A stretch of 62,062 nucleotides of DNA from Pseudomonadota bacterium (GTDB lineage: Archaea > Thermoplasmatota > SW-10-69-26 > JACQPN01 > JAJPHT01), in the NCBI GenBank assembly GCA_021325135.1, contig JAJPHT010000003.1:1-62062 (forward strand), read 5' to 3'. Shown here in pieces: positions 458 to 26,744 of this stretch (within the stretch, counting starts at the first letter, position 1; each line of letters starts with the position of its first letter). Under the pieces are notes generated by a model. It was not told the origin of the DNA and did not search any database. It saw only the letters and a list, made by a program, of their open reading frames with translations. The position numbers and the translations under genes were made by a program.

Positions 458-486
458 GCGCGCAAAATGGGGGGTTTCAGGGGGGC
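458..486 (+). repeat. Left imperfect terminal inverted repeat (GCGCGCAAAATGGGGGGTTTCAGGGGGGC)
   Basis: Aligns with the reverse complement of 26409-26436 (GCGCGCAAGGGTGGGGGGTTCGGGGGGC). Confidence 0.5.
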
Positions 487-548
487 TCGCCCCCCTGACG
501 TGAAGTCGTCGGATCCAAGGGATGAAAACGTCAGGGGGCTTCGCCCCC
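477..548. repeat. Two related GC-rich hairpins (TCAGGGGGGCTCGCCCCCCTGA; TCAGGGGGCTTCGCCCCC)
   Basis: 9-bp perfect stem at 477-498; second near-identical unit at 531-548; the two can also pair with each other via CCCCTGACGT/ACGTCAGGGG. Confidence 0.7.
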
Positions 549-687
549 AAAGGGGTACGGGGCAACGGGTCGGCCAACGCCCCGCGACTAGTCGGGTTCC
601 CCGGGCTCCCGGGGGCCTGACTGGTTCCGGTGCCTGGTTCCGGCTCCAGCGGGCAACGGTTTTCGCGTGCGAAGGAGCGATGAAGAC

Positions 688-1113
688 ATGCCGACTCCCG
701 AGCACCAGACCCCCGCCGAGTACCAAGCCCAGCGCCGCCAGCAGGCCGTGACCCTCTACTTCGCCAGCCCCGAGGAGCGGGCGCGGTTCCGCAAGCTGGC
801 CGCCGACGCGGGCTATTCCCGCGACTTCAGCGGGTGGCTCATCCAGAAGGTGATTCACGCCACCAGCGGCCACCTGTACCCGCCCGGCTACGTTGACGAG
901 CTGAAGGCCGAGAACTCCCGGCTCCGCTCCCGCTTGGAGCAGGCGCGCGACGACATGGAGGATTACCGCGCGCAGCTCCGCGCCCTCCAAGGCGAGCGGG
1001 ATACGGCCGTCGTCCTGCTCGCCGGGCGTCTGCCCGACGGGGAGCAGATCATCAAGCGATACCTCCCCGGCATCCCCCTGGCCGCCGCCGGCTCCCAGGA
1101 GGCGAGCGCGTGA
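688..1113 (+). CDS. Putative ribbon-helix-helix/coiled-coil protein, first gene of integrase operon
   Basis: VTLYFASPEERARFRKLAADAGYSRDFSGWLIQKV is RHH-like; followed by heptad coiled coil; GTGA overlap with next gene. Confidence 0.6.
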   Translation: MPTPEHQTPAEYQAQRRQQAVTLYFASPEERARFRKLAADAGYSRDFSGWLIQKVIHATSGHLYPPGYVDELKAENSRLRSRLEQARDDMEDYRAQLRALQGERDTAVVLLAGRLPDGEQIIKRYLPGIPLAAAGSQEASA

Positions 1114-1682
1114 ACGCCGTTGCCATCGCGCCCGCCGCCCTGCGCGACCTCGTGAGCCGCCTGGAGGCCGCGGCCCGCGCCATCAAGCGCGGCCACCACC
1201 GCGCCGCCGCCCGGAGCATCGCGGGCGCGGCAACGGACCTCGCCAACCTCCCCGACTTCACCGGCGAGCCCGACACCCTGGGGATCGACCGGGCCGACGT
1301 GGGCGCCACCGTCCAGACCCTCGATGCGACGGCCCGCGCGCTCCAGCAGGGGGACGACCGCGGGGCGTCCGTCGCCGTCTCCAAGATCGCCGCGGACCTC
1401 GCCGCCCTGATGGAGCCCAAGGAGGAGCGCGGGAGCTTCGGCCGCTACGAGCTGGCATGGAGCGCCCCCGGAGAGCGCACCGTCTTCCCCGTCGAGCTTC
1501 CCGGCGTGCCGCTGCGCCGCACGTTCCCCACGCACGACGACGCCCGCGCCTGGGCCGCCCTCTCGGACGCCCCCCTCTCCGGGATCGAGGGGCGCCCGCT
1601 GCGCGTGTGGCGCATCCGCGACGCGGCGAAGAAGGGCGACCGCTGGCGCATCCTCCCCGCCGACTGGAGGCTGAGCGCGTGA
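1110..1682 (+). CDS. Hypothetical protein (integrase operon)
   Basis: 190 aa ORF coupled by GTGA overlaps at both ends; normal composition. Confidence 0.7.
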   Translation: MNAVAIAPAALRDLVSRLEAAARAIKRGHHRAAARSIAGAATDLANLPDFTGEPDTLGIDRADVGATVQTLDATARALQQGDDRGASVAVSKIAADLAALMEPKEERGSFGRYELAWSAPGERTVFPVELPGVPLRRTFPTHDDARAWAALSDAPLSGIEGRPLRVWRIRDAAKKGDRWRILPADWRLSA

Positions 1683-3001
1683 GCTTCATTGACCCGCGCC
1701 TCCGCACGCGCGCCCCCGTCGCGCCGGTCGCGGCTCGCGCGCCCAAGCCCAAGACGAACGCCGAGCTTTTCGAGGACTTCTTGGCCTACCTCCCGGGCCG
1801 CCTCGCCACGACCACCGCGGAGAGCTACCGGAATTATGTCCGCGACGCCCTGGCCTACTTCCACACCGAGACGGGCGAGGAAATCCCCGTCCGCGAGTGG
1901 ACAAAGGACCTCGTGTGGGCCTACCTCCACCACGTCGAGCAGAACTATTGCCGCAAGCTGAACAGCTTCACGAGCAAGGAGGGAACGCGCGTCGTCTGCC
2001 TCAACAACGTGTGGATCGGCCACAAGGCGCCGGAGGATGGCCTGGAGTTGTGCCGCACCTGCCCCCTGTTCGAGCGGCCCACCATCGAGAAGCGCATCCA
2101 CGCCCTGAACCGCTGGATGGGCTACCTCGCCAGCCTCGGCTACGTCCCCGTGAACTTCATCCGCGACGTGCTGGCGGAGAACACCCAGGCGACGCCCCGG
2201 CACGCGCGCACCAGCAAGGGCGAGAAGAAGCGAAACCCCACGGTGGCGGAGACGGTCCGCCTCGTGAACGGCACCACGCACCCCATGAAGCGGTTCGTCT
2301 ATGCGGCCAACCTGAAGTGGGGCACGCGCCCCAACGAAATGATGGCCCTGGACCGCTTCGCCAGCTTCGGGCTCCCCACGCCCGAAGGCTGCGCCGAGCC
2401 CCCGGGCTTTGAGACGGCCTTCCGCTACCACCCCGAGGCAAAGGGCTTCGGCCTCGGGGGCCGCCTGGCCTACATTCCCGACCACAAGGGCGCCCTGGAC
2501 AAGCGCCAGGGGAACCGCTGGCTGGTCGTGGACGACGAGCTGAAGCCCCTGCTCCTGGCGGCCTTCGAGTGGTGGGAACGCAAGGTGAAGCGCCACCCGG
2601 ACGGACGCCCCGTCCATACCCGCTTGGTCATCAACGACAAGGGCCGCCCCCTGGCAAACGAGAAAATCGAGCGGATCAACTCCTCATGGTTCTACGCCGA
2701 CGCCGAGCGGTTGGGCCTCATGGTGCCCGGCGACCGAGAGAAGCCCCTCCGGCGCCTGAGCTTCGGCACCGGCCGCCACGGGTTCGAGGCCCTGGTTCAA
2801 GAGCTGGAGCTGGCGCAGGACTGGCAAAACCACATGCGCGGAGACAAGCTGCACGACGCCCGCGGCCACTACTACGTTCCCACGCCCCTTGACATGGAAC
2901 GCAAGTACCTCAAGCACATTCCCACCCTGGGCTTCAGCCCGATCCCCACCACGGACGCGGCGCCGGCCAAGGCGGGGGCGAAGCAGGGGGCGAGCGCGTG
3001 A
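1679..3001 (+). CDS. Tyrosine recombinase / integrase
   Basis: N-terminal SAM-like domain (TAESYRNYVRDALAYF), box I WGTRPNEMMALD, box II GTGRHGF...HMRGDKLHDARGHYY; GTG start overlaps upstream TGA. Confidence 0.88.
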   Translation: MSFIDPRLRTRAPVAPVAARAPKPKTNAELFEDFLAYLPGRLATTTAESYRNYVRDALAYFHTETGEEIPVREWTKDLVWAYLHHVEQNYCRKLNSFTSKEGTRVVCLNNVWIGHKAPEDGLELCRTCPLFERPTIEKRIHALNRWMGYLASLGYVPVNFIRDVLAENTQATPRHARTSKGEKKRNPTVAETVRLVNGTTHPMKRFVYAANLKWGTRPNEMMALDRFASFGLPTPEGCAEPPGFETAFRYHPEAKGFGLGGRLAYIPDHKGALDKRQGNRWLVVDDELKPLLLAAFEWWERKVKRHPDGRPVHTRLVINDKGRPLANEKIERINSSWFYADAERLGLMVPGDREKPLRRLSFGTGRHGFEALVQELELAQDWQNHMRGDKLHDARGHYYVPTPLDMERKYLKHIPTLGFSPIPTTDAAPAKAGAKQGASA

Positions 3002-4274: not shown

Positions 4275-4652
4275 TCACCGCGCGGAGTCGTCGGCGTGGT
4301 GGTCGGTCGCGGAGCCCAGCTCCGACGCCGCGGAGGAGTCGGGCTCCTCCGCGGCGTCGGAGCTGCGGGCGGCGCGGCGCGCGGCCCTGCGCGCCTCCTC
4401 CGCCTGGCGCTTGCGGAGCAGGAACGCGCGGGCGCGGGCGGCGCGGGCGCGCTCCCTGTCGTCCGTGGGCTCCTCCATCGCGCCTTGTCCCTGGAGGGCC
4501 AGCCGCAGGCTGTGACCCCATCCGGGCTTCTGCGCGCGATGGTTCGCGGCCACCTCGGCCTTGCCTAGTTCGTCCTGCAACTCGTCAATCAGGCTCGCCA
4601 CGTCAGGCGGAACCCACTTGGGCACGCGGTAGCTGTCGCTGGGGGTGGTCAT
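4275..4652 (-). CDS. Hypothetical protein
   Basis: 125 aa ORF with GAGGT SD, head of a leftward gene run. Confidence 0.6.
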   Translation of the reverse strand: MTTPSDSYRVPKWVPPDVASLIDELQDELGKAEVAANHRAQKPGWGHSLRLALQGQGAMEEPTDDRERARAARARAFLLRKRQAEEARRAARRAARSSDAAEEPDSSAASELGSATDHHADDSAR

Positions 4653-4874: not shown

Positions 4875-6473
4875 TCATCCGTCGCGTTGGCCGCTGGGTT
4901 TCGCCCGATCCAGCGCAGCGCGAACGCGGGGCCGGTCGCGGATGGGCTCAAAGCCTCGCCCCGTCGCCACGTCAACAGGAATATCCCACAAGAGGTCCGG
5001 AGCCTCCAGCGCCGCGACGATGGCCCCCTCTGCGGCGTCGAAATCGCCCAGCAGCAGATAGGACAGCGCGGCGTGGGCCTCCGCGGTTCCTTGCGGGCTG
5101 GGCATGGCGCGGGCGTAGGCCGCAAGCGCCTCCCGGTGGTGATCTAAGCGGGCCAGCGCGAGGCCGTAAGCTTCCCAATGTTCTCGGTTGCTATCGTCGG
5201 CTTGGATGGCATCGTTCCAGAAGGCGAGCGCGGTTTCCCGTAGGCTGCGAACATGGTCGGGATGGGCGGAGGAGGCCATGCGCTCGGCCTCCTCGGCCTT
5301 CATCGCGGCGGCCTCGGCGCGCTCGCGCCGCGAGCTGGGAGCCTCCAGCTCGACGGCCAGGCTGGGCCGTGCCGTGCGCGTCCTGCGATGCCTGCGGGCG
5401 TAGGTGGCCGCGCCCACGCACACGACGGCGGCCAGCGCGATCCCGAGGACAGCGGCCCAGGAGGGACCGGCGACCTCGGCGCGGAAGGGGGCCCGCGCGG
5501 TGCCCTTGAGCGTGGTCTGATCGAGCGAGCCCGTGAGGTCCACCCTCGCGACGGCGTCGCCCGTCTGTGTGGTCGTGGGCGTGAGGGTGGCGCGCAGCGT
5601 CCCGTTCATCGTCGCGGGCGAGCCCGTGGCGGAGTAGGTCAGTCCCGTTGTGTTGACCCAGCCCGCGAGGGGCGAGAAGTCCAAGGAGCCGGCCACCGCG
5701 AGCGTGGGGGGCGCGGTCGCCGCGATCTGGACGCCCGAGGCGTTGTCCAGCGTCACCGTGCCCGCGTCATACTCCAGCGTGACCCACCGCCGGTCTAACT
5801 CCTGCACGGTCGGCGTTTGCGTCGTGGTGTCACCCGTGGGCATCTGTTCGGCGCCTTGGTCGGACTCCAAGAGAACCGTGGAACCCTTGACCTTGAGCAG
5901 CCCGCCCCCCTCGATCATGGCGCGGCCGTAGCCAAGCGTGCCGATCAGGTGCGGGCCTGCCACCGTCTTGATGAAGGCGGGGTCCTTGGGCCCCTCCCAA
6001 TCTGTTACGCTGCCGCCCTCGCCGGGTCCTGGGCTCGCCATGCGGGTCAAGAGCTTGGGCTCCAGCTTCGCGCCCTCCCCGGTGAACGAGACGCTGGCGC
6101 CGCTCGCCGGAACAAACGCCATCCATCCTGATTCGTTTTGGGCGACGACGGCGCGGACGTTGGTGCGTTCGCTGCAAGGGTCCTGCTTGGTGACGGCGGA
6201 ACGCGCGGGGTCGCCTGTCACATTGACGCTAACCCAGCGGTGGAAGTGATAACAGACATTGGCGCGCGGGAGGAATGCAACGGCGTAGGTCTGCGAGGTG
6301 TTGCCGGCGAGGAGCGCCAAGGGATTGAATGCGGCAGTCGTGGCTCCCTGGGCCGCTAGGGGTCCGGTGGTGGATAGGTGGCTGTCCATGAGCGGCGAAC
6401 CGGCCAGGACGGCGGGCAGGGTGAGGAGCCCTGCAAGGAGCAGCGTAACTCCTTGCCCTCCCGTCACCCGCAT
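4875..6473 (-). CDS. Single-pass membrane protein: signal peptide, beta-rich extracellular domain, TM helix, cytoplasmic TPR-like domain (putative receptor)
   Basis: Signal peptide MRVTGGQGVTLLLAGLLTLPAVLA; TM WAAVLGIALAAVVCVGAATYA followed by RRHRR; TPR-like HWEAYGLALARLDHHREALAAYARA; homologous to 58291-59730. Confidence 0.8.
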   Translation of the reverse strand: MRVTGGQGVTLLLAGLLTLPAVLAGSPLMDSHLSTTGPLAAQGATTAAFNPLALLAGNTSQTYAVAFLPRANVCYHFHRWVSVNVTGDPARSAVTKQDPCSERTNVRAVVAQNESGWMAFVPASGASVSFTGEGAKLEPKLLTRMASPGPGEGGSVTDWEGPKDPAFIKTVAGPHLIGTLGYGRAMIEGGGLLKVKGSTVLLESDQGAEQMPTGDTTTQTPTVQELDRRWVTLEYDAGTVTLDNASGVQIAATAPPTLAVAGSLDFSPLAGWVNTTGLTYSATGSPATMNGTLRATLTPTTTQTGDAVARVDLTGSLDQTTLKGTARAPFRAEVAGPSWAAVLGIALAAVVCVGAATYARRHRRTRTARPSLAVELEAPSSRRERAEAAAMKAEEAERMASSAHPDHVRSLRETALAFWNDAIQADDSNREHWEAYGLALARLDHHREALAAYARAMPSPQGTAEAHAALSYLLLGDFDAAEGAIVAALEAPDLLWDIPVDVATGRGFEPIRDRPRVRAALDRAKPSGQRDG

Positions 6474-6999: not shown

Positions 7000-7015
7000 T
7001 CGCTGGGCTCGCCTG

Positions 7016-8403: not shown

Positions 8404-8613
8404 CAATCAACCAAGTCCCGTGCCACGAAACAGCACGTCACGGCGCTTGGGTTAGGTTACAGTTTGTGTCTTTTTCTCTGGGGGAATGCAACATTTCGGT
8501 TAGCTCTCAGATAGGTTCTTGTGAGCCATCGTGTTATTTTGTGGCGGGAGATAGGCTTGTCGCGGGTGATCCCCCGCCGCGTTGGGCTGCGATCCCGTGG
8601 AGACGAAAAACCA

Positions 8614-10287
8614 ATGAGACGAATCCTTGCGGTCCTCGTGACCGTCCTGATGCTTCCCCTCCTGTCCATGCCCTTCGTGTCCGCCACGGACCCGGAATGC
8701 GCGCCCGGCACCGCGACCGGAAGCTGTACCTTCACCGGCCCGACGCCCGGCGGTGTGTACGTCTATGACACGATCATCGTGCCCGCTGGCGTTACCGTGA
8801 CCTCCGACCTCTCGCTCGTGCTTCACGCGCGCAACGAGCTTCGCGTCGAGGGCAACGTCGTGGCGCCCACCGTCACGCTCGTTTCCGACCTCGCCGCCAT
8901 CGTGAGCGGCAACGTCCGCGGGCTCGACGGCAACGCGCTCACCCCGAACGGAGGCGACGTGAGCGTCACCGCCTCCAACCTCCTCTACACGGGCGTGATC
9001 CAGTCGGGCAACGGCGCCCCTGGCGTTGACGACGTGCAGAACGTCGGCGACACGCTCCCCACCGTCGCCGCGCACGCCACCCCCGGAGGCAACGGCGGCA
9101 ACGTCGTCATCAGCTCCCCCTCCCTCATCTTGCAGGGCTCATTCATCGTCGGCAACGGCGGCAAGGGCGGCTCCGCCCAGGCCATCGGCGGCACCATGTC
9201 CGCCAGCGCCATCGGCGGCGACGGCGGCGCCTCCGGCAACCTCGTCCTCCCCCCGACCTACAACGTCCTCAACGTCATCGGGGAGGGCCTTGTGACCGGC
9301 GGCGAGGGCGGCGACGGCGGCAACGCCTTCTCCCAGGTGTCTCAGACGCCCCCTTCCTACATGGCGCTCCCCAGCGACGCCGTGACGGGGCCCGTCAACG
9401 ACGCCACCCAGCAGGACCCCGGCACCGGCCCCGTCCCGCCGCTCGCGGCTGCGGTCCCCGCGCTGTACGGCCCCGACTCCTGGCCCGCGGCCAGCGACTC
9501 CCGCTCGTTCGTCGCCTGCAAGGGCGCGGACAGCACCGGGTACGGCGAGATGGGCAAGACCGGCTGCCAGGGCTGGAGCGGCTACGAGGACCGCACCACC
9601 GACGGCGGCAACGGCGGCTACGGCATCCTCCGCGGCGGGCGCGGCGGCGACGCCACCGCCTACGGCGGCCAGGGCGGCATGGGAGGGCGCGGCGGCAACG
9701 GCTTCAACCGCGACTGCACGATCTACACGAGCGGTCAGAGCACTTGCAGCAACCACTTCGGCGGCCAGGGCGGGCGCGGCGGGACCGGCGGCAACGCCTA
9801 CTCCTACGGCGGCAACGGCGGCTCCTCGGTCGTCCAGGGCGGCGCGGGCGGCGACGCCTACGCCTTCGGCGGCAAGGGCGGCACGGGCGGCCTGGGCGGC
9901 GACGGCGGCGGCGGCTGGGTCAACATGTACGACGGCGACCAGGTCTCCCAGACGCTCGCCACCATCGGCTGCATGAAGGGCATCTACACCTTCGAGGCGT
10001 TCGAGCTGGTCATCGGCTGCGGCGACTACCTGTGGGCGTCCAAGGGCACCTACTTCGTCTGCGGTGACCCCGGCGCCGCCGGTCCCGGCGGCGATCCCGG
10101 CCAGGGCTACGCCTCTGGCGGCGCGGGCGGGCGCAACCTCCAGGGCCTCGGCACCGCCGGCCCCTCGGGCAACAGCTACGGCTACCCGGGCTATTGGGGC
10201 AACAGCGGCACGCAGGGGGGACGGCAGAACACGGTCCTTCTCGTGAACGTCGCACCCGCCCAGTACGCTTCTCACGTCTGCGGTTAG
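8614..10287 (+). CDS. Secreted glycine-rich repeat protein (GGxGGxGG)
   Basis: Signal peptide MRRILAVLVTVLMLPLLSMPFVSA; many GGNGG/GGKGG/GGDGG repeats; paired Cys. Confidence 0.85.
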   Translation: MRRILAVLVTVLMLPLLSMPFVSATDPECAPGTATGSCTFTGPTPGGVYVYDTIIVPAGVTVTSDLSLVLHARNELRVEGNVVAPTVTLVSDLAAIVSGNVRGLDGNALTPNGGDVSVTASNLLYTGVIQSGNGAPGVDDVQNVGDTLPTVAAHATPGGNGGNVVISSPSLILQGSFIVGNGGKGGSAQAIGGTMSASAIGGDGGASGNLVLPPTYNVLNVIGEGLVTGGEGGDGGNAFSQVSQTPPSYMALPSDAVTGPVNDATQQDPGTGPVPPLAAAVPALYGPDSWPAASDSRSFVACKGADSTGYGEMGKTGCQGWSGYEDRTTDGGNGGYGILRGGRGGDATAYGGQGGMGGRGGNGFNRDCTIYTSGQSTCSNHFGGQGGRGGTGGNAYSYGGNGGSSVVQGGAGGDAYAFGGKGGTGGLGGDGGGGWVNMYDGDQVSQTLATIGCMKGIYTFEAFELVIGCGDYLWASKGTYFVCGDPGAAGPGGDPGQGYASGGAGGRNLQGLGTAGPSGNSYGYPGYWGNSGTQGGRQNTVLLVNVAPAQYASHVCG

Positions 10288-10443
10288 ACGCGAGCAACCT
10301 TCAGCCCCCGCGCTCGACGCCCGACGGCTCAGCGCGGGGGCGACCCCCCTCAATAAGACCTATCCACCCAAAACGCCCATCCTCTCGACAAAAGTTACAA
10401 CCGGGCCAAGTAACTCCCCGCCCGCCACCCTGCGAGGAATCCC

Positions 10444-12129
10444 ATGAAGAACGTTCGTCCCATCGTTGCACTTGCCCTCCTTCTCTGTCTGGGCGCCACC
10501 ATCCTCCCGCCGCAGGCAGTCTCCACCGGAGGCGATGGCGAAGGAACGGTCTCAACGGGAGGAACCGGCGACGGCTCCGGCGGCGGCGGTTCCCCTCCGC
10601 CTTACGACTGCACGAAAGACCCATCGAACCGTGTGGACTGCGGCTCCAACGACATGTGCCCCGGCATCTCGTGGCCCGCGCCCCAGGGCTCACAAGCCAC
10701 GAGCACCGGCCACCTGGGCGGCAGCGACACCGACGATTGGGCCAACGTCGAGCTGTACCGCACCGAGACGTTGAGCGTTACGAGCGACCACGGCGCCGTC
10801 ACCTACGCGACGCCAGCTTGCGGATCGATGCCCCTCGACAAGCCCACGCCCACGAACGTCAATCAGGGCGGCGACTACGCATTCGATACCTCCGTCCCCG
10901 CTGGACTCCCAGAGGCTGCCAGCCACGTTGCCTACGCGATCACGCCGAACGACGCGACCGGCCCCGGAACCGACGTGGGCAACGTCGCCGCCGCAGCCTA
11001 CCCCGTCACCGTCGCCCCGAGCGACGCGGGCGCCGCTGGCCTGCTCCAGATCAACGGCAGCTTGCCCGACCGCGAGATGCCCGACGTGGACTGGTTCCGC
11101 TTCCACTCCACGCTGGCGGAGACGCCCGGCGTGGACGGCCAGCCCCGGGGCCTCGCCCTCGGGCTCCTCTCCGCAACGTTCTCCCCCGACTGCAACGGCG
11201 GCACCTACACCATGACGCTCTACCAGTCGGACGGCATGACCGCCATCTCCTCCGCCTCCGGCTGCGGCAGCGCAGGCGTTACCCTCTCCTGCATCACCGC
11301 CGGGTACACGGCCGTCTATGCCGAATTGACCGTCGGAGGCAAGGGCACCGGCTACACCCTCGCCCCGAGTCTTTCGCCCCTGTACCTCGTCAACGTGGAC
11401 AACGGCACCGCCCAAGACTTCGCTATCAACCCGCAAGTCCCTTGGTGCGATCCTCTGCTGCCTATGATCCTCGGCGTTGCCCAGGCTGGGAACGCAGTTG
11501 CCAACGAGGTCGGGGACGTTCTCGCCGGCATTAACCCCGCCGTCTGCCCCAGCGACGGCGGCAGCGCCCAGGTCAACGACCCCACGCTCACCCAGGCTTG
11601 CGGAATGTATGTCTGGATTCTCGACCAGCAAAACACGCTCCCCTCACAACAGATTTACAGCCACTACTTCCCAGGATGCATCCCCGAGACCTGCTATCTC
11701 CAAGCGACCGCCAGCACCGAGCAGGTTAGCCCGGACGATCCGACCGCGCCCTACTATCAAGCTGGAGCGAGTCCGACGTGCCGAACTGATAACATTTGCT
11801 ACGCCGCCGACTACGGCGGCGGATCGTTCTATGGATTCCAAGGATGGACGACGATCCAATGCACGCCCGGCACGACCGACACGAGCTTCTACGCCGAGGC
11901 CACTTGCGTGAGCCGTGGCTCCAGCATCGGTCCGGTCCAGAGCGGCCAGCTCATGCCGATCATTGAGTACCTGTACGTTCCGAAGGGAACCTGCGTTACG
12001 CACACCTTTACGCAGGGCGTAACTGCCACCCTCGCAACAAATCCCGAAGGGCAGTCCTACTCGACGGACCCTGACTTCCAGACCAGCAAGCCGATCAAAG
12101 TCTGCCACTATTCGGACGCATCTACCTGA
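10444..12129 (+). CDS. Secreted Cys-rich protein with possible pre-peptidase C-terminal (PPC)-like domain
   Basis: Signal peptide; DTDDW and DVDWFRF...YTMTLYQSDG motifs; many Cys. Confidence 0.8.
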   Translation: MKNVRPIVALALLLCLGATILPPQAVSTGGDGEGTVSTGGTGDGSGGGGSPPPYDCTKDPSNRVDCGSNDMCPGISWPAPQGSQATSTGHLGGSDTDDWANVELYRTETLSVTSDHGAVTYATPACGSMPLDKPTPTNVNQGGDYAFDTSVPAGLPEAASHVAYAITPNDATGPGTDVGNVAAAAYPVTVAPSDAGAAGLLQINGSLPDREMPDVDWFRFHSTLAETPGVDGQPRGLALGLLSATFSPDCNGGTYTMTLYQSDGMTAISSASGCGSAGVTLSCITAGYTAVYAELTVGGKGTGYTLAPSLSPLYLVNVDNGTAQDFAINPQVPWCDPLLPMILGVAQAGNAVANEVGDVLAGINPAVCPSDGGSAQVNDPTLTQACGMYVWILDQQNTLPSQQIYSHYFPGCIPETCYLQATASTEQVSPDDPTAPYYQAGASPTCRTDNICYAADYGGGSFYGFQGWTTIQCTPGTTDTSFYAEATCVSRGSSIGPVQSGQLMPIIEYLYVPKGTCVTHTFTQGVTATLATNPEGQSYSTDPDFQTSKPIKVCHYSDAST

Positions 12130-12143
12130 AGGAGAGACGGTCC

Positions 12144-12692
12144 ATGCAACTCCAAGTGACACCCGAAACGTTATCCACGGCCCGCCGACTCAAGGACATG
12201 AGTTTTCCTATGAAGTCGGGCTTGCTGGCGGTGCTCGTTATCCTGCCGATCCTGCTTCAATCCGCCGGAGCGGACTCCACGACCTCCAGCGCATCCTACA
12301 CCGCCATCAACCCGTGGACGCGCTTCGGTGTGGACGTGCCCGACTGCATCTATGCCGGTCCCGTCCCCGACACCCCTCGCGTCGGACTTGGCGGAGCCTG
12401 TTTCTCCATGCCGAACGGAACCTACCACTACCGCGTCACGCTCAATGACGACGTGTGGGGACTCGGTTTCGCAGAGGTTGGCCTGTGCGGGAGAATGCCT
12501 GATGGCACACGGGCCTGTTACGGGGATGCCGTCTGCAACGGCACCGCGGAGGGAGATACCCCCATCAACATTACCTCGATTACCGTGACGGTCCACGACT
12601 ATCAGAGGGCGCGACTCGACGGGTGCGATTCCGTGCCCGTCACCTGGGTCCCTACGCACGGCCAAATCACGCTTGAGCTAACGCCCAAGTAG
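12144..12692 (+). CDS. Secreted Cys-containing protein
   Basis: Signal peptide MKSGLLAVLVILPILLQSAGA (true start may be an internal ATG); six Cys. Confidence 0.75.
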   Translation: MQLQVTPETLSTARRLKDMSFPMKSGLLAVLVILPILLQSAGADSTTSSASYTAINPWTRFGVDVPDCIYAGPVPDTPRVGLGGACFSMPNGTYHYRVTLNDDVWGLGFAEVGLCGRMPDGTRACYGDAVCNGTAEGDTPINITSITVTVHDYQRARLDGCDSVPVTWVPTHGQITLELTPK

Positions 12693-12710
12693 CACGCCCG
12701 GGGCACCACC

Positions 12711-14899: not shown

Positions 14900-14923
14900 A
14901 TCACGCCCCGCCACGCCGCCTTT

Positions 14924-14968
14924 GGCCGGCGCGCAGCGCGCGCCGGCCGCCCCCCTTCTCCTCTCCTA
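14924..14968 (+). terminator. Hairpin plus pyrimidine tract after capsid-like gene
   Basis: 11-bp stem GGCCGGCGCGC-AGC-GCGCGCCGGCC followed by CCCCCTTCTCCTCTCC. Confidence 0.55.
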
Positions 14969-14987
14969 ACCCTCCCGGTGATCCCTC

Positions 14988-17618
14988 ATGCTCCAGCCCA
15001 AGCTCCGCCCCGCCCGCGCCCTCGCGCTCCTCCTCGCGCTCGACCTCGCCGCCTCCGCGCTGGTGATCCTCACGCCCGGCGCCAACGCCCTGCCCAACGC
15101 CAACGACCCGTGGCAACAGGAGATTTGGCGTCAAGCCGTCCCCGGCGGCTTCAGCAGCTCAAACACATGCGGCCCCTGCCCCTCGACGGGCACCACGGGC
15201 ACCGCGACCCTGCCCGCCGGGGACTACTACGTCGTGGTGAACGCCGGATGCGTCTCATGCAGCGGCCCCTTCACCTACACGTTGAACGGCGTGGGCGTCG
15301 TGACGTGGAACAACGACGGCAGCATGACGCTTGGCAGCGTCGGCTCCAGCGTCAGCGGCTATCAATTCCTCCAGTGGGGCGGCTGCTCCAACGGCTGCTA
15401 TGCCTACCTCGCCGTGACGCTCTCCGCGACCGTGACGCTCAGCTTCAACGGCTTCAACAGCTTCGGCATGGGCAACTGCGGGTTCGGATGCAGCTCCGGC
15501 GGCGGAACGCTATCAACTAGCGCGCTCTCCGGCTACGGGTTCGTGGGCGGCTTCTGGACCGGCTACAACGGCGCGCAGAATTATCACTCCATGTGGTTCA
15601 GCGCCTTGGGACAGCTAAGCGAGGCCGGCATCCTCGCAACGCAGATGACGCGCACCCCGACCACGACCCAATGGACATGGAGCCAAGTCCAGGGGGACGC
15701 GCAGCTCATCAACGCCGCCAACAGCAACGCCGGGTCCTACGTCTCGGGCGTGCAATCATTCGTGGCCGACTTGACCAAGGGCCAGTTTATCGACACGACG
15801 GCCTTTCGCTGGAACCCTAGTGGCGTCGCGGGCGGCTGCTCGGGAACCACCATCCAGCTTTCCCTCTCCAGCAGCCTTGCCTATCCCTGGAACGTCTCCG
15901 CGGAAATCGCCAACCTCACCTTTCCGGTAACGCAAGATAGCAACAGCGGCGGAACGTCCTTCGTAACCGTGGACTGGTCGAACGCCCTTGCCTCCAGCGA
16001 CCGCGCCCTTACCTTCGGAACGCCCACCATCAGCGCCGCGGGCAGCGCGCTCACCAAGGGCACCGCGGCCTTTTACTCCAACTTCCCGCCCACCGTCGCG
16101 GCCGGCGGGACGTTCTATCTTCACTGGAACCTCTTGGGGAACGCCAACTGCGCCGCCGTCATGCAATACAACGGCGGCAATCCGTATTCCGGCGGCTCGA
16201 TTTACACTGATAGCGGCGCGGCCTGGGCGCAGCAGACCCTTCAGGACGTGAACCAGCTTATCGTGAACGTCTATGGCGGCGCAACGGTCCTCTACACCGC
16301 CAACGAGGCGCAGAAGGACGTAGGCGGCGCGTCCTACCTCTACCTGTGCGAAGTGCAACGCGACGCCGTGGCCCAACGGTACAGCTTGAGCACGAGCTAC
16401 GGCGGCGCGGCTCGCGCCGGAAGCTATCAAGCCGCAGGGTCGAACGTCTGCAACGGTGTCACCGCCGGAGGCCAGCAGGAAACGATTCAGGAATGGCGCC
16501 TCGGCTACGAGTCGCCCGTGAACGTCTCGCAAAGCGTGACGCTCTCCCTCAATCTCGCGGGTGCATCGCGCAACCTTCTCTATGTGGGAACGCTGGCCGG
16601 CACGCAGCCCGCGCACCCCAACCTTGCCGCGGGCTTCGGCTTCGCGGCCACCGGGTACAACACGGTTACGGCTTACAAGCTGTTTTCAACGGACGACTAC
16701 GCGACCAGCGCGACGTTCACCGTGTCGGAATGCGTGGACCCGGCGTGCGCCACCCTCGGCGCGGCGATCAACACCAGCAGTTACGTTGTCACGATTTGCC
16801 CCGGCGCGTTCGCGCGCACGGTGGCGGGCGTCGTGAACGCCAGCGCCATGTTCAACGTCTCGGGGCAGGACGTGGCGGGCTGCAAGCTGACGGTGGACCT
16901 CAAGGACTCCGCGCACGCCCCGACCTCGTGGACCGTGGCGATCCCGGGCCCCGGCTCCTACGCCTACACGTTGGGCATGTTCCGTCCCTCGCTGGCGGGC
17001 GGCGGCCCCGCGCTACTGCCCGTCGTCATCACGTTCAGCGGCAACGCCACGCGGGTTGTGCCCGACAAAGTGAACCTCTCGATTAACCGGACCTTGCCCA
17101 CACCCCTTTGGGTGGATCAAGTCCTGTTCGACCTCAAGAGCGGGACCTATCGGCGCGTGGGCAGCCCCGCGCCCTGGAACAGCGGCGACGGCGCGACGTT
17201 CACGTTCCTCTATCCCACGCTCAAGAGCGCGACCGAGGCGCGCGACGCGGGCACCTATGAGGTGTTCGTGACGGACGGCAACGGGACTTACCTGGGCGGT
17301 GAGTCCTTCTGCCTCCTCACGAGCTGGAGCGCGAGCGCCGCCAGCTCGTGCAACGTGCCCCTCCAGCCCGCCGACCAGCTCAAGCTAGCCGCCGACAGCG
17401 CCGCGGCCATCGGGCAGGAGCGCGTTCTCATCAGCCGCGCCCAGGCCCAGCAGCTTCAGCAAGAGGCCGTCGATTATGTGGCGCTCGCCGTCGTCGTCCT
17501 GTTCCGGCCCGACTACTTCGGCACGCCCAACATTCTGTGGGGCCTCATCGCGTCGGGCATGATCCTGGCGACGGGCACGGTGGGCGGCTCCCTGGGCGGC
17601 TCCCGCAGGAGGCACTAG
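14988..17618 (+). CDS. Large membrane-anchored glycoprotein (putative virion adhesin/tail protein)
   Basis: Signal peptide, Ser/Thr/Gly/Asn-rich beta body, about ten N-x-S/T sequons, C-terminal hydrophobic segments. Confidence 0.8.
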   Translation: MLQPKLRPARALALLLALDLAASALVILTPGANALPNANDPWQQEIWRQAVPGGFSSSNTCGPCPSTGTTGTATLPAGDYYVVVNAGCVSCSGPFTYTLNGVGVVTWNNDGSMTLGSVGSSVSGYQFLQWGGCSNGCYAYLAVTLSATVTLSFNGFNSFGMGNCGFGCSSGGGTLSTSALSGYGFVGGFWTGYNGAQNYHSMWFSALGQLSEAGILATQMTRTPTTTQWTWSQVQGDAQLINAANSNAGSYVSGVQSFVADLTKGQFIDTTAFRWNPSGVAGGCSGTTIQLSLSSSLAYPWNVSAEIANLTFPVTQDSNSGGTSFVTVDWSNALASSDRALTFGTPTISAAGSALTKGTAAFYSNFPPTVAAGGTFYLHWNLLGNANCAAVMQYNGGNPYSGGSIYTDSGAAWAQQTLQDVNQLIVNVYGGATVLYTANEAQKDVGGASYLYLCEVQRDAVAQRYSLSTSYGGAARAGSYQAAGSNVCNGVTAGGQQETIQEWRLGYESPVNVSQSVTLSLNLAGASRNLLYVGTLAGTQPAHPNLAAGFGFAATGYNTVTAYKLFSTDDYATSATFTVSECVDPACATLGAAINTSSYVVTICPGAFARTVAGVVNASAMFNVSGQDVAGCKLTVDLKDSAHAPTSWTVAIPGPGSYAYTLGMFRPSLAGGGPALLPVVITFSGNATRVVPDKVNLSINRTLPTPLWVDQVLFDLKSGTYRRVGSPAPWNSGDGATFTFLYPTLKSATEARDAGTYEVFVTDGNGTYLGGESFCLLTSWSASAASSCNVPLQPADQLKLAADSAAAIGQERVLISRAQAQQLQQEAVDYVALAVVVLFRPDYFGTPNILWGLIASGMILATGTVGGSLGGSRRRH

Positions 17619-17621
17619 ATC

Positions 17622-18848
17622 ATGCGCGCGCCGCGCGTCGTCGCCGCGATCCTCGCGGCGCTCCTGCTCTCCCCGTCCGTGCTCGCCGCGCAACAGCTTG
17701 AGATTGGCACCACGGACTTTGCCACCGAGAGCTTCAGCGCCGAGTCGGACAACCCGCCCACCGCCGACGACTACGCCTATGGCTTCCTCTCTCCCCCCTT
17801 CAGCGGGTACGAGCAGGGACCGGGAAGCATCCAGAGTTTCGGCGTGGAAGTGGCAACCGACTTCGGCACGCTCACCAGTGGGACCGGCGACCGCTCGCAG
17901 ATCACCACCATAACGGTGAGCAACAACACGACGACGGTTCTTCTGCGGTACGAGAGCCGCGCGACGCGCCACCTTCTCGGCTTCTTCACGCTCGACCAGA
18001 GCGCGTATGTGAATGGAACCCTCACCTGGCAATCCTCGCGCACGGAGCTTCACCCGTTCTCGGGGCTGCGCTATCAGACGAGCGCCATTCTTGCTTACAG
18101 CAACAACGACACCAACGCCTTCCCGCCCTCGCAAGGTCCCAACGTCATCAACACCCTGGGTTCCGCCTCGGAGACGATTCACGGGGGCGCGCTCTACTAC
18201 CTCGATCCCAACAGCGGGGGCGACTACTTCAGCGGCAAGCACGCAACCCGCTATCTCCTCGCCAACCTCTCGGGCGTCGTCGCCGTCACCGTCAGCACGG
18301 AATACCCCGACGGGTTGCCGAACGCGCTTGAGCTTCGCTATCGGTTCGAGGATGGCGACGCCTTGGCCGTGCGCGAAGCAGGCCAGGACTGCGGCAAGGG
18401 CTGGAAGAATTGGGTCCGCGACTCCTTGGGCGCCTGCCCGAGCGTCGCGGGCTTCCTCGACCTCCTGGCCGCGGGCTTCACGTCCGTCCTGGGCCTGATC
18501 CTGCGCGTCGTCGTGGGCGAGAAGGGGCAAGACCTGGCCGACTTCATGGGCGGCCTCGCGCAGCAGGGCATCAACGCCGTGGTTCTCCTCGTGCGCCTCG
18601 CAAGCATCGACACGCCCCGCGAGCTGGTGGCCTGGGAACTCCTGATCCTTTGTTATGCCATGGCGCTTGGCGGCTTCACCCACGACCCCACCGTTACGTT
18701 GTCCATCGCCAAGGGCGGCACAAAGGCGCTGGTCATGCTGGTTGTGGGCTGGTTCGTTTTCCTCTACCACGCCCTGCGCTTCAGCCTCACGCTCCTGGCG
18801 CGCATCGTCACCGCGATTGCCGATTTCCTGGGAGGCATCATCCCATGA
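17622..18848 (+). CDS. Putative virion membrane protein
   Basis: Signal peptide, extracellular domain with sequons, multi-TM C-terminal third. Confidence 0.8.
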   Translation: MRAPRVVAAILAALLLSPSVLAAQQLEIGTTDFATESFSAESDNPPTADDYAYGFLSPPFSGYEQGPGSIQSFGVEVATDFGTLTSGTGDRSQITTITVSNNTTTVLLRYESRATRHLLGFFTLDQSAYVNGTLTWQSSRTELHPFSGLRYQTSAILAYSNNDTNAFPPSQGPNVINTLGSASETIHGGALYYLDPNSGGDYFSGKHATRYLLANLSGVVAVTVSTEYPDGLPNALELRYRFEDGDALAVREAGQDCGKGWKNWVRDSLGACPSVAGFLDLLAAGFTSVLGLILRVVVGEKGQDLADFMGGLAQQGINAVVLLVRLASIDTPRELVAWELLILCYAMALGGFTHDPTVTLSIAKGGTKALVMLVVGWFVFLYHALRFSLTLLARIVTAIADFLGGIIP

Positions 18849-21181
18849 GAGCCCCGCCCGCGATCCACGCGCGCCGGCTGGCGCTCCTGCTCGACTTCTT
18901 GCCCCTCGCCCTCTTGGCCCTCACGCTCCTGCTCCACGTCGCCGCGGCATCCAGCGCGACGGATGGGAGCTGCGCGAGCACGACGGCCACCAGCCCGAGC
19001 GGCGGCACGCGCGTCTTCGCTCTCAGCGCCAGCGCGGCGACGGTGGGAACCTCCGGCTGCGCCTTGACGGGCGAGGGGATCACCGAGGCCGACGCCGGAG
19101 CGCCCATCGCCATCCGGTGCGTAGAGCTGACGACCCTGAACCTTCCCCCTGGCACGGCGGACTCCAACGGGATTCACCTCCGCGCCTACGCCGATGCGGA
19201 CAGCTTCCAGACCGGCGGAGCCGGCACCCCCGTATGGGAAGCCCTCCGCTCCTCCTGCTCCCCCGAGTGGGACGGGCAACTCTACTGTACCAGCGACGGC
19301 ACCGCGACGGGAGCGCCCCGCTACGGCACGCTGCGCCTTCTCGTGCGCGCCGTCCGAACCTCCACCCTCGCCTATGACGTGAACAGCGAAGACGCCGCGA
19401 CGACGAGCCATTGGGGCGTCGTTCGGTGCCTGCCGCGCGTGAGCAGCCTCACCGATCCCGGCCAGGCCATCAAGTACGTCGGTGGGGACTCCTTCCAGGC
19501 GAGCGCGAGCGCGACGGCGGGCGCCTACAACAGCGGCGCGACCGCGACCCTGAGCGCGACGTGCGGCAGCTTCACCGCGACCCTGGGCAGCGTCGCCCTG
19601 GCGCCCGACGTGGCGAGCGCGAGCGTGACCATCAAGGGCGACCCGGCGACGACGTGGCCCGCGCCCTGCTCCGTGGCCGAGTCCGTGATCCTCTCCCGGC
19701 TCTCGGCCGTCTCCGGCTTCACGGCACAGCCATACGCGCGCTGGTCCGCCACGGAGCCCACCGGCATCAGCCTGAGCGCGGACAAGCTCACCGCCTCCCG
19801 CTCGACGGGCAAGGGACTAGATCGCGGGCTCAGCGCCGCGGACTGCGCCGCCAGCGTGGCCGGCTCGCCGGTCGCCGTCGTGAACCGCCTGGAGAGCGTC
19901 ACGCTCGCCGCCCACTGGTCGAACGCCCGCGGCGAGGCCGTCCCCTCGGGCCGGCTCGTGGACGCCTACCCCTACCGCGTGGGGACCACGCCCGACGCGG
20001 AGACGGACTTCAACCACGTCGGCGCGACGGCGGGCGCCTCGGGCCTCGTGAGCGTCCTGGCGACGAGCCGCGCCACGAGCACGAGCACGCAGAACACGAC
20101 CGCGCCGGACTATGCCCTGTGGTTGAAGACCTACGGCGCGACCCGCACGACCGCGGAGCTTTACAACTTGGGCGGCTGCCCGGCGTTCTTTGACCTCTCG
20201 TGGGTGTGGACCTTCGGGAACCTCACGCTCTCCAAGCAGCAGGCGCCCGTCCAGAACGCGAGCGTCTTTGTCATCGGCGCCGACCTCATGTATGCGCGCG
20301 CCGAGAACTTGACCGAGGCCGACGGCCTGCGCGTCGCAGGCGAGGCCGTCACCTGCCAGCGCACGCTCCCCGACGGCTCGACCGAGACGGCCGCGAGCCT
20401 GGGCACGACGGGCACCACCGGCACAACGGGGCTTCACCAATTCCTCATCGTCGCCCCGCCCGGGACGTGGCTCCTCGCGTGCAGCGCGGCGGACAACGGC
20501 AACTATGCGGTGTTCGTCGTCGCCTACACGCACGCCAGCCCCGTGAGCGCGCAGACCTCGCTCTCGATCCTCGCGGAGCCCGTCTCCGGCGGCTTCTCCG
20601 TCAACGTCTCGGTGGTCATGCGCGCGTATGACCCGGGGTGCGACTGCCCCGCCCGCGCCTTCCCGGACGCCGGCGGCGCCGTGCGCCTCACCGTCCTGGC
20701 GTGGAACAACACCACCGCGACGTATGACGCGCCCGTCTTGCGGTGGGCGATGAACCAGACGAGCCCCACGGAGTCGGCCTTCTTCGCCGTGGTGAACGTC
20801 TCGGCGTGGAACGCCTCGCGGCCCGTCGTCGTCATGGTCAGCGCGAACATGACCGGCCGCGCGTTCCTCGCCTCGGGCAGCTACGCGGCGCTGGCCGTCT
20901 CGACGGAGAGCGCCGCGCCGCCCAGCGTCATCGACGGCACGTTGCCGTTCTTCATCATCATGGCCGTGGGCCTGGGGTTCCTCGCGTTGACCCTGGCCTT
21001 CGGCCTGCCCTATTTCGCCGTCTTCACGTTGGCGGCGACGTTCGCGGGCTATGCGCTTTACCATCAGGCCCAGGCGCAAGGTGTGGTGATCCTCGCGGGT
21101 CCCTACGTCCCCATGCTCCTCTTGACGGAGGGCCTGTCCAGCATCGGGGCGGCAGCATACGCATACCGGAAGGTGAGCTAG
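18845..21181 (+). CDS. Large membrane-anchored glycoprotein (putative virion protein)
   Basis: ATGA-coupled start; signal peptide; many sequons and paired Cys; three C-terminal TM helices. Confidence 0.8.
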   Translation: MRAPPAIHARRLALLLDFLPLALLALTLLLHVAAASSATDGSCASTTATSPSGGTRVFALSASAATVGTSGCALTGEGITEADAGAPIAIRCVELTTLNLPPGTADSNGIHLRAYADADSFQTGGAGTPVWEALRSSCSPEWDGQLYCTSDGTATGAPRYGTLRLLVRAVRTSTLAYDVNSEDAATTSHWGVVRCLPRVSSLTDPGQAIKYVGGDSFQASASATAGAYNSGATATLSATCGSFTATLGSVALAPDVASASVTIKGDPATTWPAPCSVAESVILSRLSAVSGFTAQPYARWSATEPTGISLSADKLTASRSTGKGLDRGLSAADCAASVAGSPVAVVNRLESVTLAAHWSNARGEAVPSGRLVDAYPYRVGTTPDAETDFNHVGATAGASGLVSVLATSRATSTSTQNTTAPDYALWLKTYGATRTTAELYNLGGCPAFFDLSWVWTFGNLTLSKQQAPVQNASVFVIGADLMYARAENLTEADGLRVAGEAVTCQRTLPDGSTETAASLGTTGTTGTTGLHQFLIVAPPGTWLLACSAADNGNYAVFVVAYTHASPVSAQTSLSILAEPVSGGFSVNVSVVMRAYDPGCDCPARAFPDAGGAVRLTVLAWNNTTATYDAPVLRWAMNQTSPTESAFFAVVNVSAWNASRPVVVMVSANMTGRAFLASGSYAALAVSTESAAPPSVIDGTLPFFIIMAVGLGFLALTLAFGLPYFAVFTLAATFAGYALYHQAQAQGVVILAGPYVPMLLLTEGLSSIGAAAYAYRKVS

Positions 21182-21259
21182 CACGACCCCACACGAGACG
21201 ACCGGCGGCCACGCGCCGCAGCAGACCCCCACGACCACCCCGCCCACGGGAGGGAGCGC

Positions 21260-22434: not shown

Positions 22435-22448
22435 GGGGGGACTAGATC

Positions 22449-25044: not shown

Positions 25045-25747
25045 ATCACGCGCCCCACCTTGGGGCCGCCCCGTCCGTGGCGCCCAGGAGGCCGGGCGCG
25101 CGATGGCGGCGCATGGAAGCCCTCGGGTCCCCCACCGATGCCTTCCCCGCGATCCTCGCGCATTAGGCGACGTCCGCGTCCCCAATCGCCACGCTGGCCG
25201 AAGCGGCGACCGCGGGCCATGTAGCCCCAAAATCCAAGACGGGATCAGCCGTCTAGCACACCAGGCCGGGGCCTGAAGCCTCCTCGCACAACCTTCTCTC
25301 CCTGGCCTTCTTTCTCACAAGTCGTCGCGGTTTCGACGGACGCGGCGCGGCGGGTTCGCTTCGATCCGCCGCAGCCCATCGGTTGCACCGCAACCAAGCA
25401 GAAGCAAGCTGCCGCAGCCTTCCGGCTTCGCGGCAGCGGGGGCAGGATGGGCACGGCCCGGCGCCAGCCTCCCACGAGGGCGCGGACCGAGGGCACCCCC
25501 GCTGCCTCTCCTCCGGTGAGTCCCCCCAGGAGAGGAACCGCTCTCTTCATGTGCCGTAACGCAGGTTGCAGCCGTCGTGCTGCGCCCCTCGGCCCGCCCT
25601 GTCGCCGGCCCCCACGCCCGCCCGCAGTACGCTTGCCGGGCCTGCGGTGCCATGGCGACGCCCCGCGTTGAAGGGGCCTGTCCGCGATGCGGGGCGCCCC
25701 TGGGGAGCCCCGTTGTCTAGGCCTGCCGCAAGCCGCCAAACCTAAGT

Positions 25748-26023
25748 TTGCGTCTCGCCTTGTTGCGCCCGTTGGGAGAGAACGCGGGAGGCGTCGTTCT
25801 CGCACGCTTGCGCGACCACGCCGCCGAAGAAGGATGGAGATTCGAGGCCGCGCCTTACGCCGCAGGCTACCGCGCGAGGATCACGCGGGGCATGGAAACG
25901 CTGGAGGTCCAGATCACGGCGGCGGGCTTTGTTCACGCCTTGGGCAAGCCCTCCCCCCTCTACGCCTCGGTTCTCCTTTGGAAAGCCACCATGCCCACGT
26001 TCGGCCCCGGCCGGCTTCTCTAA
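25748..26023 (+). CDS. Hypothetical protein
   Basis: 91 aa, globular-looking composition (GWRFEAAPYAAGYRARITRG). Confidence 0.5.
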   Translation: MRLALLRPLGENAGGVVLARLRDHAAEEGWRFEAAPYAAGYRARITRGMETLEVQITAAGFVHALGKPSPLYASVLLWKATMPTFGPGRLL

Positions 26024-26295
26024 CGGGACGGAGCGCGGCGGGCCGCTTCGCGCGCCTCGCGCAACTCCCGTCCAGCCGCGGTAAGCTCAGCCCTCGCCCC
26101 CTCCAAGGCAGCCGAGACAGAAGCCCGCTGCGTCGGCGGGCAGCCACGGAGATTGGCCTGGGCTGCGTCAAATGCCCGTTGTGCCTCCACGAGCCGGCGG
26201 CGGGCTTCGGCCTCACTGGTCCCGGGCAAGCTTGAACCTCCAAGGGCCTTGGCTTCAAGGGGTCTTAAGCCTCGATGAAAAGGCGCACCCGACAT
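26020..26295 (-). CDS. Hypothetical coiled-coil protein
   Basis: Helical Ala/Arg/Glu pattern; start uncertain. Confidence 0.4.
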   Translation of the reverse strand: MSGAPFHRGLRPLEAKALGGSSLPGTSEAEARRRLVEAQRAFDAAQANLRGCPPTQRASVSAALEGARAELTAAGRELREAREAARRAPSR

Positions 26296-26387
26296 GCGGG
26301 GCTTCGGTCGCGTCCCGCCGCGAGGAAACCACGCGCACCACATGGCTTATGTGATCCGCGGGAGAGTAAGGGGGCAGCACGCGGCAA

Positions 26388-26744
26388 CTAGTTGCCCGCG
26401 CCCCTTCTGCCCCCCGAACCCCCCACCCTTGCGCGCCGCCCCTTGCGCCGCCCGCGCTCGGCCCTCTCCTCGAGCCACGCGTGGGAGAGCACCAGCGTCG
26501 CGCCCACGACGAGCAGCGCCGCGAGGGCCAGCCCCGGCGCCTGCCACCAGGCGTGCCACGCGCGGGGGACGCACGAGGCCGTGAAGGTCTGCCCGTCCAG
26601 CGGGCCGCTATCGCACGCGGTCCCGTGCGCGAGCGAGGCGCGCCACCCCAGCGCGAGCCCGCAGGCGAGGGCCAGGAGCGCGAGCCCCCGGCGCTTCCAG
26701 CGCGGCGCGGCGGCGAGCGAGCGGGAGAGGCGCGGAAGCAGCAC
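26388..26744 (-). CDS. Two-TM membrane protein
   Basis: Two hydrophobic helices flanking a Cys-Cys loop; 3' end runs into the right repeat. Confidence 0.55.
   Translation of the reverse strand: MLLPRLSRSLAAAPRWKRRGLALLALACGLALGWRASLAHGTACDSGPLDGQTFTASCVPRAWHAWWQAPGLALAALLVVGATLVLSHAWLEERAERGRRKGRRARVGGSGGRRGAGN
26409..26436 (-). repeat. Right imperfect terminal inverted repeat
   Basis: Reverse complement aligns with 458-486; embedded in a long hairpin centred on the palindrome GGCAACTAGTTGCC (26383-26396). Confidence 0.5.

Follow-up and report, generated by a model that had tools for sequence, protein, structure and literature searches.

The stretch analysed here, referred to as the window, is the whole of contig C7 (62,062 nt), part of a 3.77-Mb archaeal host genome of about 72% GC, and it carries a mobile element at positions 549-26414 whose features are collected in Table 1. 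An integrase operon at the left (688-3357) is followed by accessory and cargo genes and then by a co-oriented run (13329-23282) that includes a 91-aa hydrophobic hairpin protein, three large membrane-anchored proteins, three small conserved genes and a terminal P-loop ATPase. Both blocks had been recognised in an earlier sequence-only reading that proposed a probable spindle-shaped provirus, and this proposal is now supported by homology of the hairpin protein to the capsid protein VP1 of the fusellovirus SSV1, by matches of the ATPase, by an empty site in related genomes and by a circular relative. That the element is an integrated virus with an SSV1-type capsid is very likely; that it is a temperate virus of the SSV1-capsid spindle supergroup, representing an undescribed lineage that infects high-GC Thermoplasmatota, is a good deal more likely than any other account considered below.

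Table 1. Features of the integrated element and its borders in the window (TM, transmembrane).
Feature	Position	Strand	Remarks
Host palindromic repeat (resembling repetitive extragenic palindromes or miniature inverted-repeat transposable elements, REP/MITE-like), left part; host side of attL	457..548	+	core GCCCCC at 543-548; many genome-wide copies
Left element end	549..592	.	imperfect terminal inverted repeat; ACTAGT palindrome at 587
141-aa protein preceding integrase	688..1113	+	paralogues precede integrases on C39, C45, C46; 46% identical in L136
Tyrosine-recombinase-type integrase, 440 aa, unsplit	1679..3001	+	class from motifs
125-aa accessory protein	4275..4652	-	38% identical to L015
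Single-pass surface receptor-like protein	4875..6473	-	homologue in L015; several host paralogues
Variable cargo: secreted Gly-rich, secreted 561-aa, 182-aa secreted and 4-TM proteins	8521..13154	+	no L015 homologues
Basic 114-aa protein with His/Cys motifs	13329..13673	+	70-80% identical in L015 and L003; no Pfam match
Major capsid protein precursor, 91 aa, SSV1 VP1-like hairpin (predicted)	14624..14899	+	class III leader, about residues 1-13; CTG start
GC-rich hairpin and pyrimidine tract after capsid gene	14915..14975	+	RNAfold; similar structure in 5/6 relatives
876-aa beta-rich membrane-anchored protein	14988..17618	+	homologues follow capsid gene in 6/6 relatives; paralogue on C39
408-aa protein, signal peptide and several TM segments	17622..18848	+	conserved in L015, L018, L020
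778-aa sequon-rich membrane-anchored protein	18845..21181	+	57% identical to L015; weak C-terminal match to L018
Three small conserved genes: 141 aa (C-terminal TM), 130 aa, 119 aa	21260..22434	+	order kept in L015, L018, L020, 32-75% identity
AAA+/P-loop ATPase, about 278 aa	22446..23282	+	Walker A and B invariant; non-canonical start (probable)
Right element end	26384..26414	.	ACTAGT palindrome at 26387; attR core GCCCCC at 26409-26414
Split host repeat, terminal piece; host side of attR	26415..26436	+	1/3 orphan terminal pieces in genome

The 91-aa protein has the two helices described earlier, with hydrophobic segments at residues 22-40 and 62-80, an LLP motif and a loop sequon, N55-A-T, which aligns with the sequon of VP1 and whose Asn55 is invariant in the seven homologues found in metagenomes. 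A profile of this family has SSV19 VP1 as its top PDB match (E=0.0025) and, in six-frame translations of SSV1 and His1, ranks VP1 and ORF21 first in their own genomes. With the leader removed, the profile reaches five fusellovirus VP1s at E 6e-5 to 0.002 and ASV1 and His1 near 0.01 (His1 0.014), the best host pilin lying at E 4.7. Two capsid-family members are matched by phrog_11172, the SSV1 VP1 family (bioRxiv 10.64898/2026.09.15.751708). The Foldseek comparison suggested earlier, made with a two-helix model (predicted local distance difference test, pLDDT, 77), again puts the SSV19 VP1 chain at rank 1 (prob 0.85, root-mean-square deviation 2.4 Å, E 1.5); BFVD and PDB-wide fold searches returned only generic helical hairpins, as expected for a hairpin, and an ESM Atlas scan was blank. 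These sequence and model comparisons are each modest yet concordant, and together they support homology of the hairpin protein to SSV1-type major capsid proteins. The capsid profile has a single match in the host genome, with no VP3 paralogue.

These properties bear directly on the cellular alternative raised from the outset, namely that the small protein is a type IV pilin. A non-viral integrative element with a pilus-like or DNA-transfer surface apparatus, in which the 91-aa protein serves as a pilin-like subunit, would be consistent with the class III leader, with the many membrane and secreted proteins and with the failure to find a Rep. The mature protein, however, has a second TM helix and no globular head, the leader-free profile does not recognise pilins, neither PilB/PilC nor a conjugation family was found, and a relative described below forms a small circular molecule whose gene content resembles that of a virus, so that this alternative is regarded as very improbable.

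The capsid frame opens two codons before its CTG, which is preceded by GGTGA and has an ATG at its place in a close homologue; the CTG may or may not be a product of start-codon decay. The separate terminator attributed to this gene corresponds to the GC-rich hairpin and pyrimidine tract 3' of it, a putative terminator or attenuator. Further along the run, the 876-, 408- and 778-aa proteins do carry signal peptides and C-terminal anchors, whereas their description as sequon-rich suits only the latter two: observed and expected sequons number 10 and 4.3 in the 778-aa protein and 4 and 2.3 in the 408-aa protein, but 10 and 9.2 in the 876-aa protein. The 876-aa protein is a putative tail or adhesion protein, in whose model (pLDDT 42) only the C-terminal beta domains are confident, with mostly immunoglobulin-like structural matches; the 408-aa protein may be a minor virion protein.

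The terminal ATPase is present as reported, with a Walker A motif GYEGSGKS, although its start requires revision, as the frame opens at 22446 and Walker A lies upstream of the first ATG (22701). Because no ATG, GTG or TTG precedes Walker A and the TAG-ATC junction at the frame opening is kept in an 82%-identical relative (L030), the start is probably non-canonical; conservation of the junction also makes loss of the start codon by decay unlikely. Read-through of the TAG was rejected, since L030 has an in-frame TGA before it. Among 50,697 phage records, tblastn with the ATPase matched only the spindle viruses TPV1 and LSV-48N (28-31%). The phylogeny that had been called for recovers a clade with the relatives L018 and L020 (support 98/93), with TPV1 and LSV-48N outside the lineage and the fusellovirus ATPase B251 on a branch that is very long and lacks support.

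The genes tested in Pfam or PHROGs matched no family of terminases, portals, HK97 capsids or conjugation proteins, in agreement with the earlier inspection, and no pleolipovirus family was matched in either collection. An enveloped virus of pleolipovirus type, whose matrix protein would be the 91-aa protein and whose spike the 876-aa protein, was formerly the principal competitor. It shares the layout of membrane proteins plus NTPase, and homologues of the 876-aa and 141-aa proteins do occur in an element on contig C39 that has a HUH-like Rep and no match to the window capsid. Homology of the small protein to VP1 speaks against it, as do the missing family matches and the absence of a fusogen among the top structural matches of the low-confidence 876-aa model, leaving it with a very small probability. 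The C39 element itself (G000:C39:17869-47862, L058) is a second provirus-like element with the same integrase family and an ATPase; its homologue of the 876-aa protein is 37% identical, which suggests module exchange between morphotypes.

A 77.5-kb contig of a related host (L136/L015) has homologues of the genes at 688 (46%), 4275, 4875 and 13329 and of the integrase (49%), and keeps the structural run up to the contig end; neighbouring host genes differ, so the same integrase-to-structural layout occurs there at a different locus. In L018 and L020 the order is again capsid, large proteins, 141/130/119-aa genes and ATPase. The three assemblies L020-L022 (19,804, 19,901 and 19,843 nt), of which two are circular permutations, resolve into one 19,774-bp circle, which occurs in samples SRR11678611, JGI 3300035687 and JGI 3300041409. 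Non-structural arms differ among the relatives, L020 having resolvases and an integrase and L018 a 649-aa gene (6429-8378) that by eye reads like a protein-primed PolB. As far as sequence comparison can tell, these data support a conserved morphogenesis module of capsid, three membrane-anchored proteins, three small proteins and ATPase. Close-relative scans of IMG/VR, GTDB and JGI were blank. Small two-helix proteins also occur near related ATPases at L062:8972 (G057), from another Thermoplasmatota, and at L027:154-664 and 8613-9078, on a 27% GC archaeal contig whose two-helix proteins score on the capsid profile; several of the L062 and L027 proteins have leaders ending in KKG or GKG.

The borders of the element differ from those first drawn at 458 and 26436. 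The segments 457-548 and 26415-26436 are two halves of a dispersed host repeat, and a GCGCGC core at 458/26436 was rejected, these positions being the repeat's own termini. After GCCCCC, intact copies of the repeat run into CGAACCCCCC, which the copy at 457-548 lacks; the missing piece is located at 26409-26424. When 457-548 is rejoined to 26415-26436, 109 BLAST matches span the junction, the best with 97% over 102 nt. Truly orphan terminal pieces number three genome-wide, one here and one bordering a 14-kb element on contig C45 (G000:C45:54420-68433), where the same repeat is split at the same nucleotide in the opposite orientation; the integrase of that element is 41% identical to that of the window, and inverted-repeat similarity is seen in alignment. 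Since the repeat rejoins across the junction, leaves an orphan piece and is split in the same way on C45, the element is delimited as 549-26414, a 25,866-bp insertion with a 6-bp core GCCCCC. The comparison thus supports an integrated mobile unit with its ends at this core within the repeat, and the integrase would be responsible for the splitting. The termini are imperfectly inverted (15/25 identity left versus right); of 12 genomic copies of ACTAGT, the two on this contig lie just inside each end, and no direct repeat of at least 12 nt is shared by the ends. The predicted attP junction was absent from JGI metagenome and IMG/VR contigs, collections that may lack the strain.

The host belongs to Thermoplasmatota, as its rpS3Ae is 91% identical to that of a metagenome-assembled genome titled Thermoplasmata archaeon BP_742, and its class is presumably GTDB SW-10-69-26. 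A 2017 soil metagenome containing the window DNA is probably its source; short pieces of both element and host flank, 99-100% identical, recur in two 2024 mine metagenomes of another study. The serS gene ends at 443, just left of the element. In the same-genus genomes G002 and G003 the block is missing from this site, serS being followed directly by homologues of the genes 27924-28292 and 28339-28707. The proposed search for an empty site was therefore successful, and conservation of the block as core genome finds no support: the capsid gene was not found in 60 relatives searched, and a capsid profile search of 20 other genomes of the host class did not find it. Composition sets the element apart as well, CTAG being avoided by the host (0.2 per kb) and about six times denser across 444-26800. 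The gene 26816-27649, with a paralogue on contig C42, lies outside the element, and the window has no tRNA. A duplicated serS 3' end was rejected as the att site, as none occurs in this genome. Such duplications, unrelated to the att of the element, do lie downstream of serS in L023 (G002) and L024 (G001), with a repeat in between, and are possibly scars of other insertions at a hotspot.

What the sequence-only reading had not seen is a pilin-like leader on the capsid precursor. Across all six frames of the 3.77-Mb genome, KAN[RQ] directly after a start codon is seen eight times: in three pilins, three archaellins, the capsid gene and one internal match. The start [ML]KAN[RQ] is found in 6/8 viral capsid homologues, and the leaders of the other two end in DDRA and DDEA, like those of a host archaellin and pilin. 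One PibD prepilin peptidase (PF01478 and PF06847) is encoded in the host, on contig C22 (12405-13148), and none in the element; a host pilin gene lies at C24:39631. The FlaFind 1.2 motif, [KRDE][GA]|[ALIFQMVED][ILMVTAS] before a hydrophobic stretch (PMC4307647), gives a mixed picture that counts against processing by this enzyme: the window capsid fails it (DA|AN, at +2), while 4/8 homologues pass, and of 485 host proteins having an N-terminal TM segment, 84 (17%) pass a near-identical motif. It should be noted that one host archaellin fails as well. Because of the 17% background the motif alone is weak evidence, and since in addition the capsid fails it and only half of its homologues pass, the specific evidence is the shared MKAN start. 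A predicted PibD-capsid complex scored 0.01 and was not used as evidence.

In SSV1, an unknown protease cleaves VP1 ahead of Glu66; the five residues upstream are essential, the Glu dispensable (PMC5748691). The cut sites of SSV1 (KG|EA) and SSV9 fit the FlaFind motif, and SSV2, SSV19, ASV1, SMF1 and TPV1 have K/R-G/A at the matching place and fail at +1 or +2. PibD acts on the cytoplasmic face of the membrane and cuts ahead of the hydrophobic helix (PMC6098224, PMC4307647), in keeping with a hairpin whose loop is outside and whose two ends are inside, the arrangement of SSV19. S. islandicus mutated in pibD produces no SSV9 (PMC7217056), a result confounded by an entry defect. Because the window capsid misses the strict motif, processing of its precursor by host PibD has to be argued from the leader, and on that footing it appears fairly probable.

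A leader not cut by PibD in an otherwise spindle-type provirus, either retained for binding DNA or taken off by a different protease, would account for the failure of the strict motif in this copy; the Arg-rich N-terminus of SSV19 has been interpreted as DNA-binding, and in L018 an M50 peptidase gene (17329-17904) follows the ATPase. In the window, however, the leader start equals that of host class III substrates residue for residue, the acidic residues near the predicted site suit DNA binding poorly, and no protease was recognised in the element, L015 or L020, so that this option is considered unlikely, though the least so of the alternatives. Returning to cleavage by PibD, a broader proposal would be that spindle-virus capsids are processed by the prepilin peptidase of the host and that in each host lineage the viral leader imitates that of the pilins (MKAN..DDxG/A here, but K/R-G/A, of basic type, in Sulfolobales and Thermococcales), that PibD is the maturation protease of SSV1 VP1, that the opening step of type IV filament formation is co-opted for capsid assembly, and that the present lineage uses a dispersed palindromic repeat, not a tRNA, for integration; taken as a whole, this is judged slightly better than evenly balanced. 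A literature search, which did not extend to the 2022 Cell paper on spindle-virus structure or to Szabo 2007, found no paper linking PibD to spindle-virus capsid maturation. At G000:C24:38421-38921, transcribed divergently from two pilin genes, lies the gene of a 166-aa membrane protein that has two Asp motifs and by eye resembles a second prepilin peptidase; PF01478 gives no match to it.

In the mechanism envisaged, the tyrosine integrase would catalyse recombination between the host repeat, at its end, and a palindromic attP, and many chromosomal sites would therefore be usable. The capsid precursor would enter the membrane as a hairpin of two helices, its termini facing inwards and its loop, N-glycosylated at Asn55, outwards, and host PibD would remove the MKAN leader of about 12-15 residues cytoplasmically, as for pilins and archaellins. 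Mature subunits and ATPase might then assemble helical strands around circular dsDNA, and particles would bud without lysis, the large anchored proteins forming the attachment end.

The signature module published for spindle viruses combines a hairpin capsid with an AAA+ ATPase (bioRxiv 10.1101/2025.02.15.638363), and both are present here, as a VP1-homologous hairpin and an AAA+ ATPase linked to the capsid gene. Because this capsid fold is not confined to spindles and is seen in rods or filaments as well, a spindle-shaped virion can only be inferred, though it is likely. Several observations weigh against the interpretation as a spindle-type provirus. The hairpin fold is shared with rod-shaped APBV1 (PMC9351363), and VP1-like proteins of the Dehalococcoides element IME1 co-occur with filaments (bioRxiv 10.64898/2026.09.15.751708); E-values to known capsids are modest, and structure search of a helical hairpin is unspecific; no Rep, primase, helicase or polymerase was recognised among the called element genes; the His of the integrase H-x-x-R motif is replaced by Gly (GTGR); and contig depth is 20-21 inside the element as against 23.6 across the right host flank. 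The first two points favour the same provirus with rod- or filament-shaped particles, formed in a clavavirus-like manner or by IME1-like extrusion, and a pilin-type leader would suit pilus-like extrusion. That the closest named matches of capsid and ATPase are spindle viruses, and that genome sizes of about 20-26 kb resemble those of TPV1 and LSV-48N, argues the other way and makes non-spindle particles rather improbable.

The remaining points concern the state of this copy. The integrase, without a Pfam or PHROG match, is 41-43% identical to three paralogues, all of which keep HCxR, and the L136 copy keeps HCQR. The suggested check for coverage shifts and circular junctions was unproductive, as depth is not raised and neither an attP join nor an excised circle was found. 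The structural genes are intact and conserved, so that the provirus appears to be quiescent or helper-dependent; it may also be decaying.

With respect to described viruses, the proposed spindle-type provirus probably represents a family-level lineage distinct from Fuselloviridae, Halspiviridae and Pleolipoviridae. It shares with Fuselloviridae (SSV1, SSV19) the hairpin capsid with LLP kink and loop sequon, a leader ending in [KR/DE][GA], the AAA+ ATPase, a large membrane-anchored protein and an integrase consistent with temperate life. It differs in having a single capsid gene without VP3 paralogue, capsid identity of only about 21%, an unsplit integrase, an att site in a dispersed repeat instead of a tRNA, a Thermoplasmatota host (70% GC) instead of Sulfolobales, and other genes without detectable homology, with no PHROG matches to A154, C166 or B115. 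The unclassified Thermococcus prieurii virus 1 (TPV1) and Haloferax LSV-48N resemble it in their 21-25 kb circular genomes with integrase and in the ATPase, and the candidate capsid of TPV1 also has an RRRG leader end, whereas TPV1 has an MCM helicase and an SSV-type integrase. Halspiviridae (His1) share a capsid homologue and, through the L018 gene, a PolB-like protein, but the linear His1 genome carries terminal repeats, encodes PolB and is non-integrating, whereas the element has an integrase and no polymerase-like called gene. IME1, compared by description only, combines VP1-like hydrophobic proteins and an ATPase on an integrative element (bioRxiv 10.64898/2026.09.15.751708), but has a bacterial host, a pI-like ATPase and filaments. 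Archaeal type IV pilins and archaellins, the PibD/FlaK substrates, share the short MKAN[RQ] leader with acidic or basic residues and Gly/Ala before the hydrophobic helix; the mature capsid differs in being a two-TM VP1-like hairpin without pilin head, encoded outside a pilus operon.

The literature search found no paper describing this provirus lineage, and a 2026 survey lists only 30 provirus regions in Thermoplasmatota and Nanobdellota combined. The element would extend spindle-type viruses to a high-GC soil lineage of Thermoplasmatota; unusual about it are the leader of host-pilin type on the capsid and the use of a dispersed repeat for integration. As the capsid leader is a tag otherwise of pilins and archaellins in this genome, the question of the SSV1 VP1 protease becomes directly testable, and PibD processing, if true, adds a second reading to the SSV9 result with the pibD mutant (PMC7217056). 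A repeat-targeting integrase family with many insertion sites could also provide a genetic tool for an untractable group.

Of the remaining element genes, the 141-aa protein at 688 is a putative regulator or excisionase, and the basic 114-aa protein may be HNH-like or a nucleoid protein. The receptor-like protein at 4875-6473 is paralogous to the host gene 58291-59730, and the 561-aa cargo protein has a paralogue on C46. On that contig, G000:C46:131006-156170 is another element of this integrase family, in which a long operon on the minus strand encodes uncharacterised membrane proteins. The host assembly yielded no convincing CRISPR array. In the host chromosome part of the window, five small Cys-rich secreted peptides are encoded in tandem at 53405-54376. 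The sequence GACTAGATCACG has four copies within the element and a single one in the rest of the genome, on C26 close to another integrase. Most of the copies overlap stop codons; the window sites listed are 3352, 14894, 22440 and 25039 (+) and 7720 (-). CTAGATC has 9/27 of its genome copies within the element, and it may be asked whether either sequence is an operator or methylation site. A sequence of about 58 nt at 25259-25316, in a right arm without significant Rfam result and itself unmatched in Rfam, is 90% matched at C26:13818, adjoining an integrase, and at C41:17032, after a purA-like gene.

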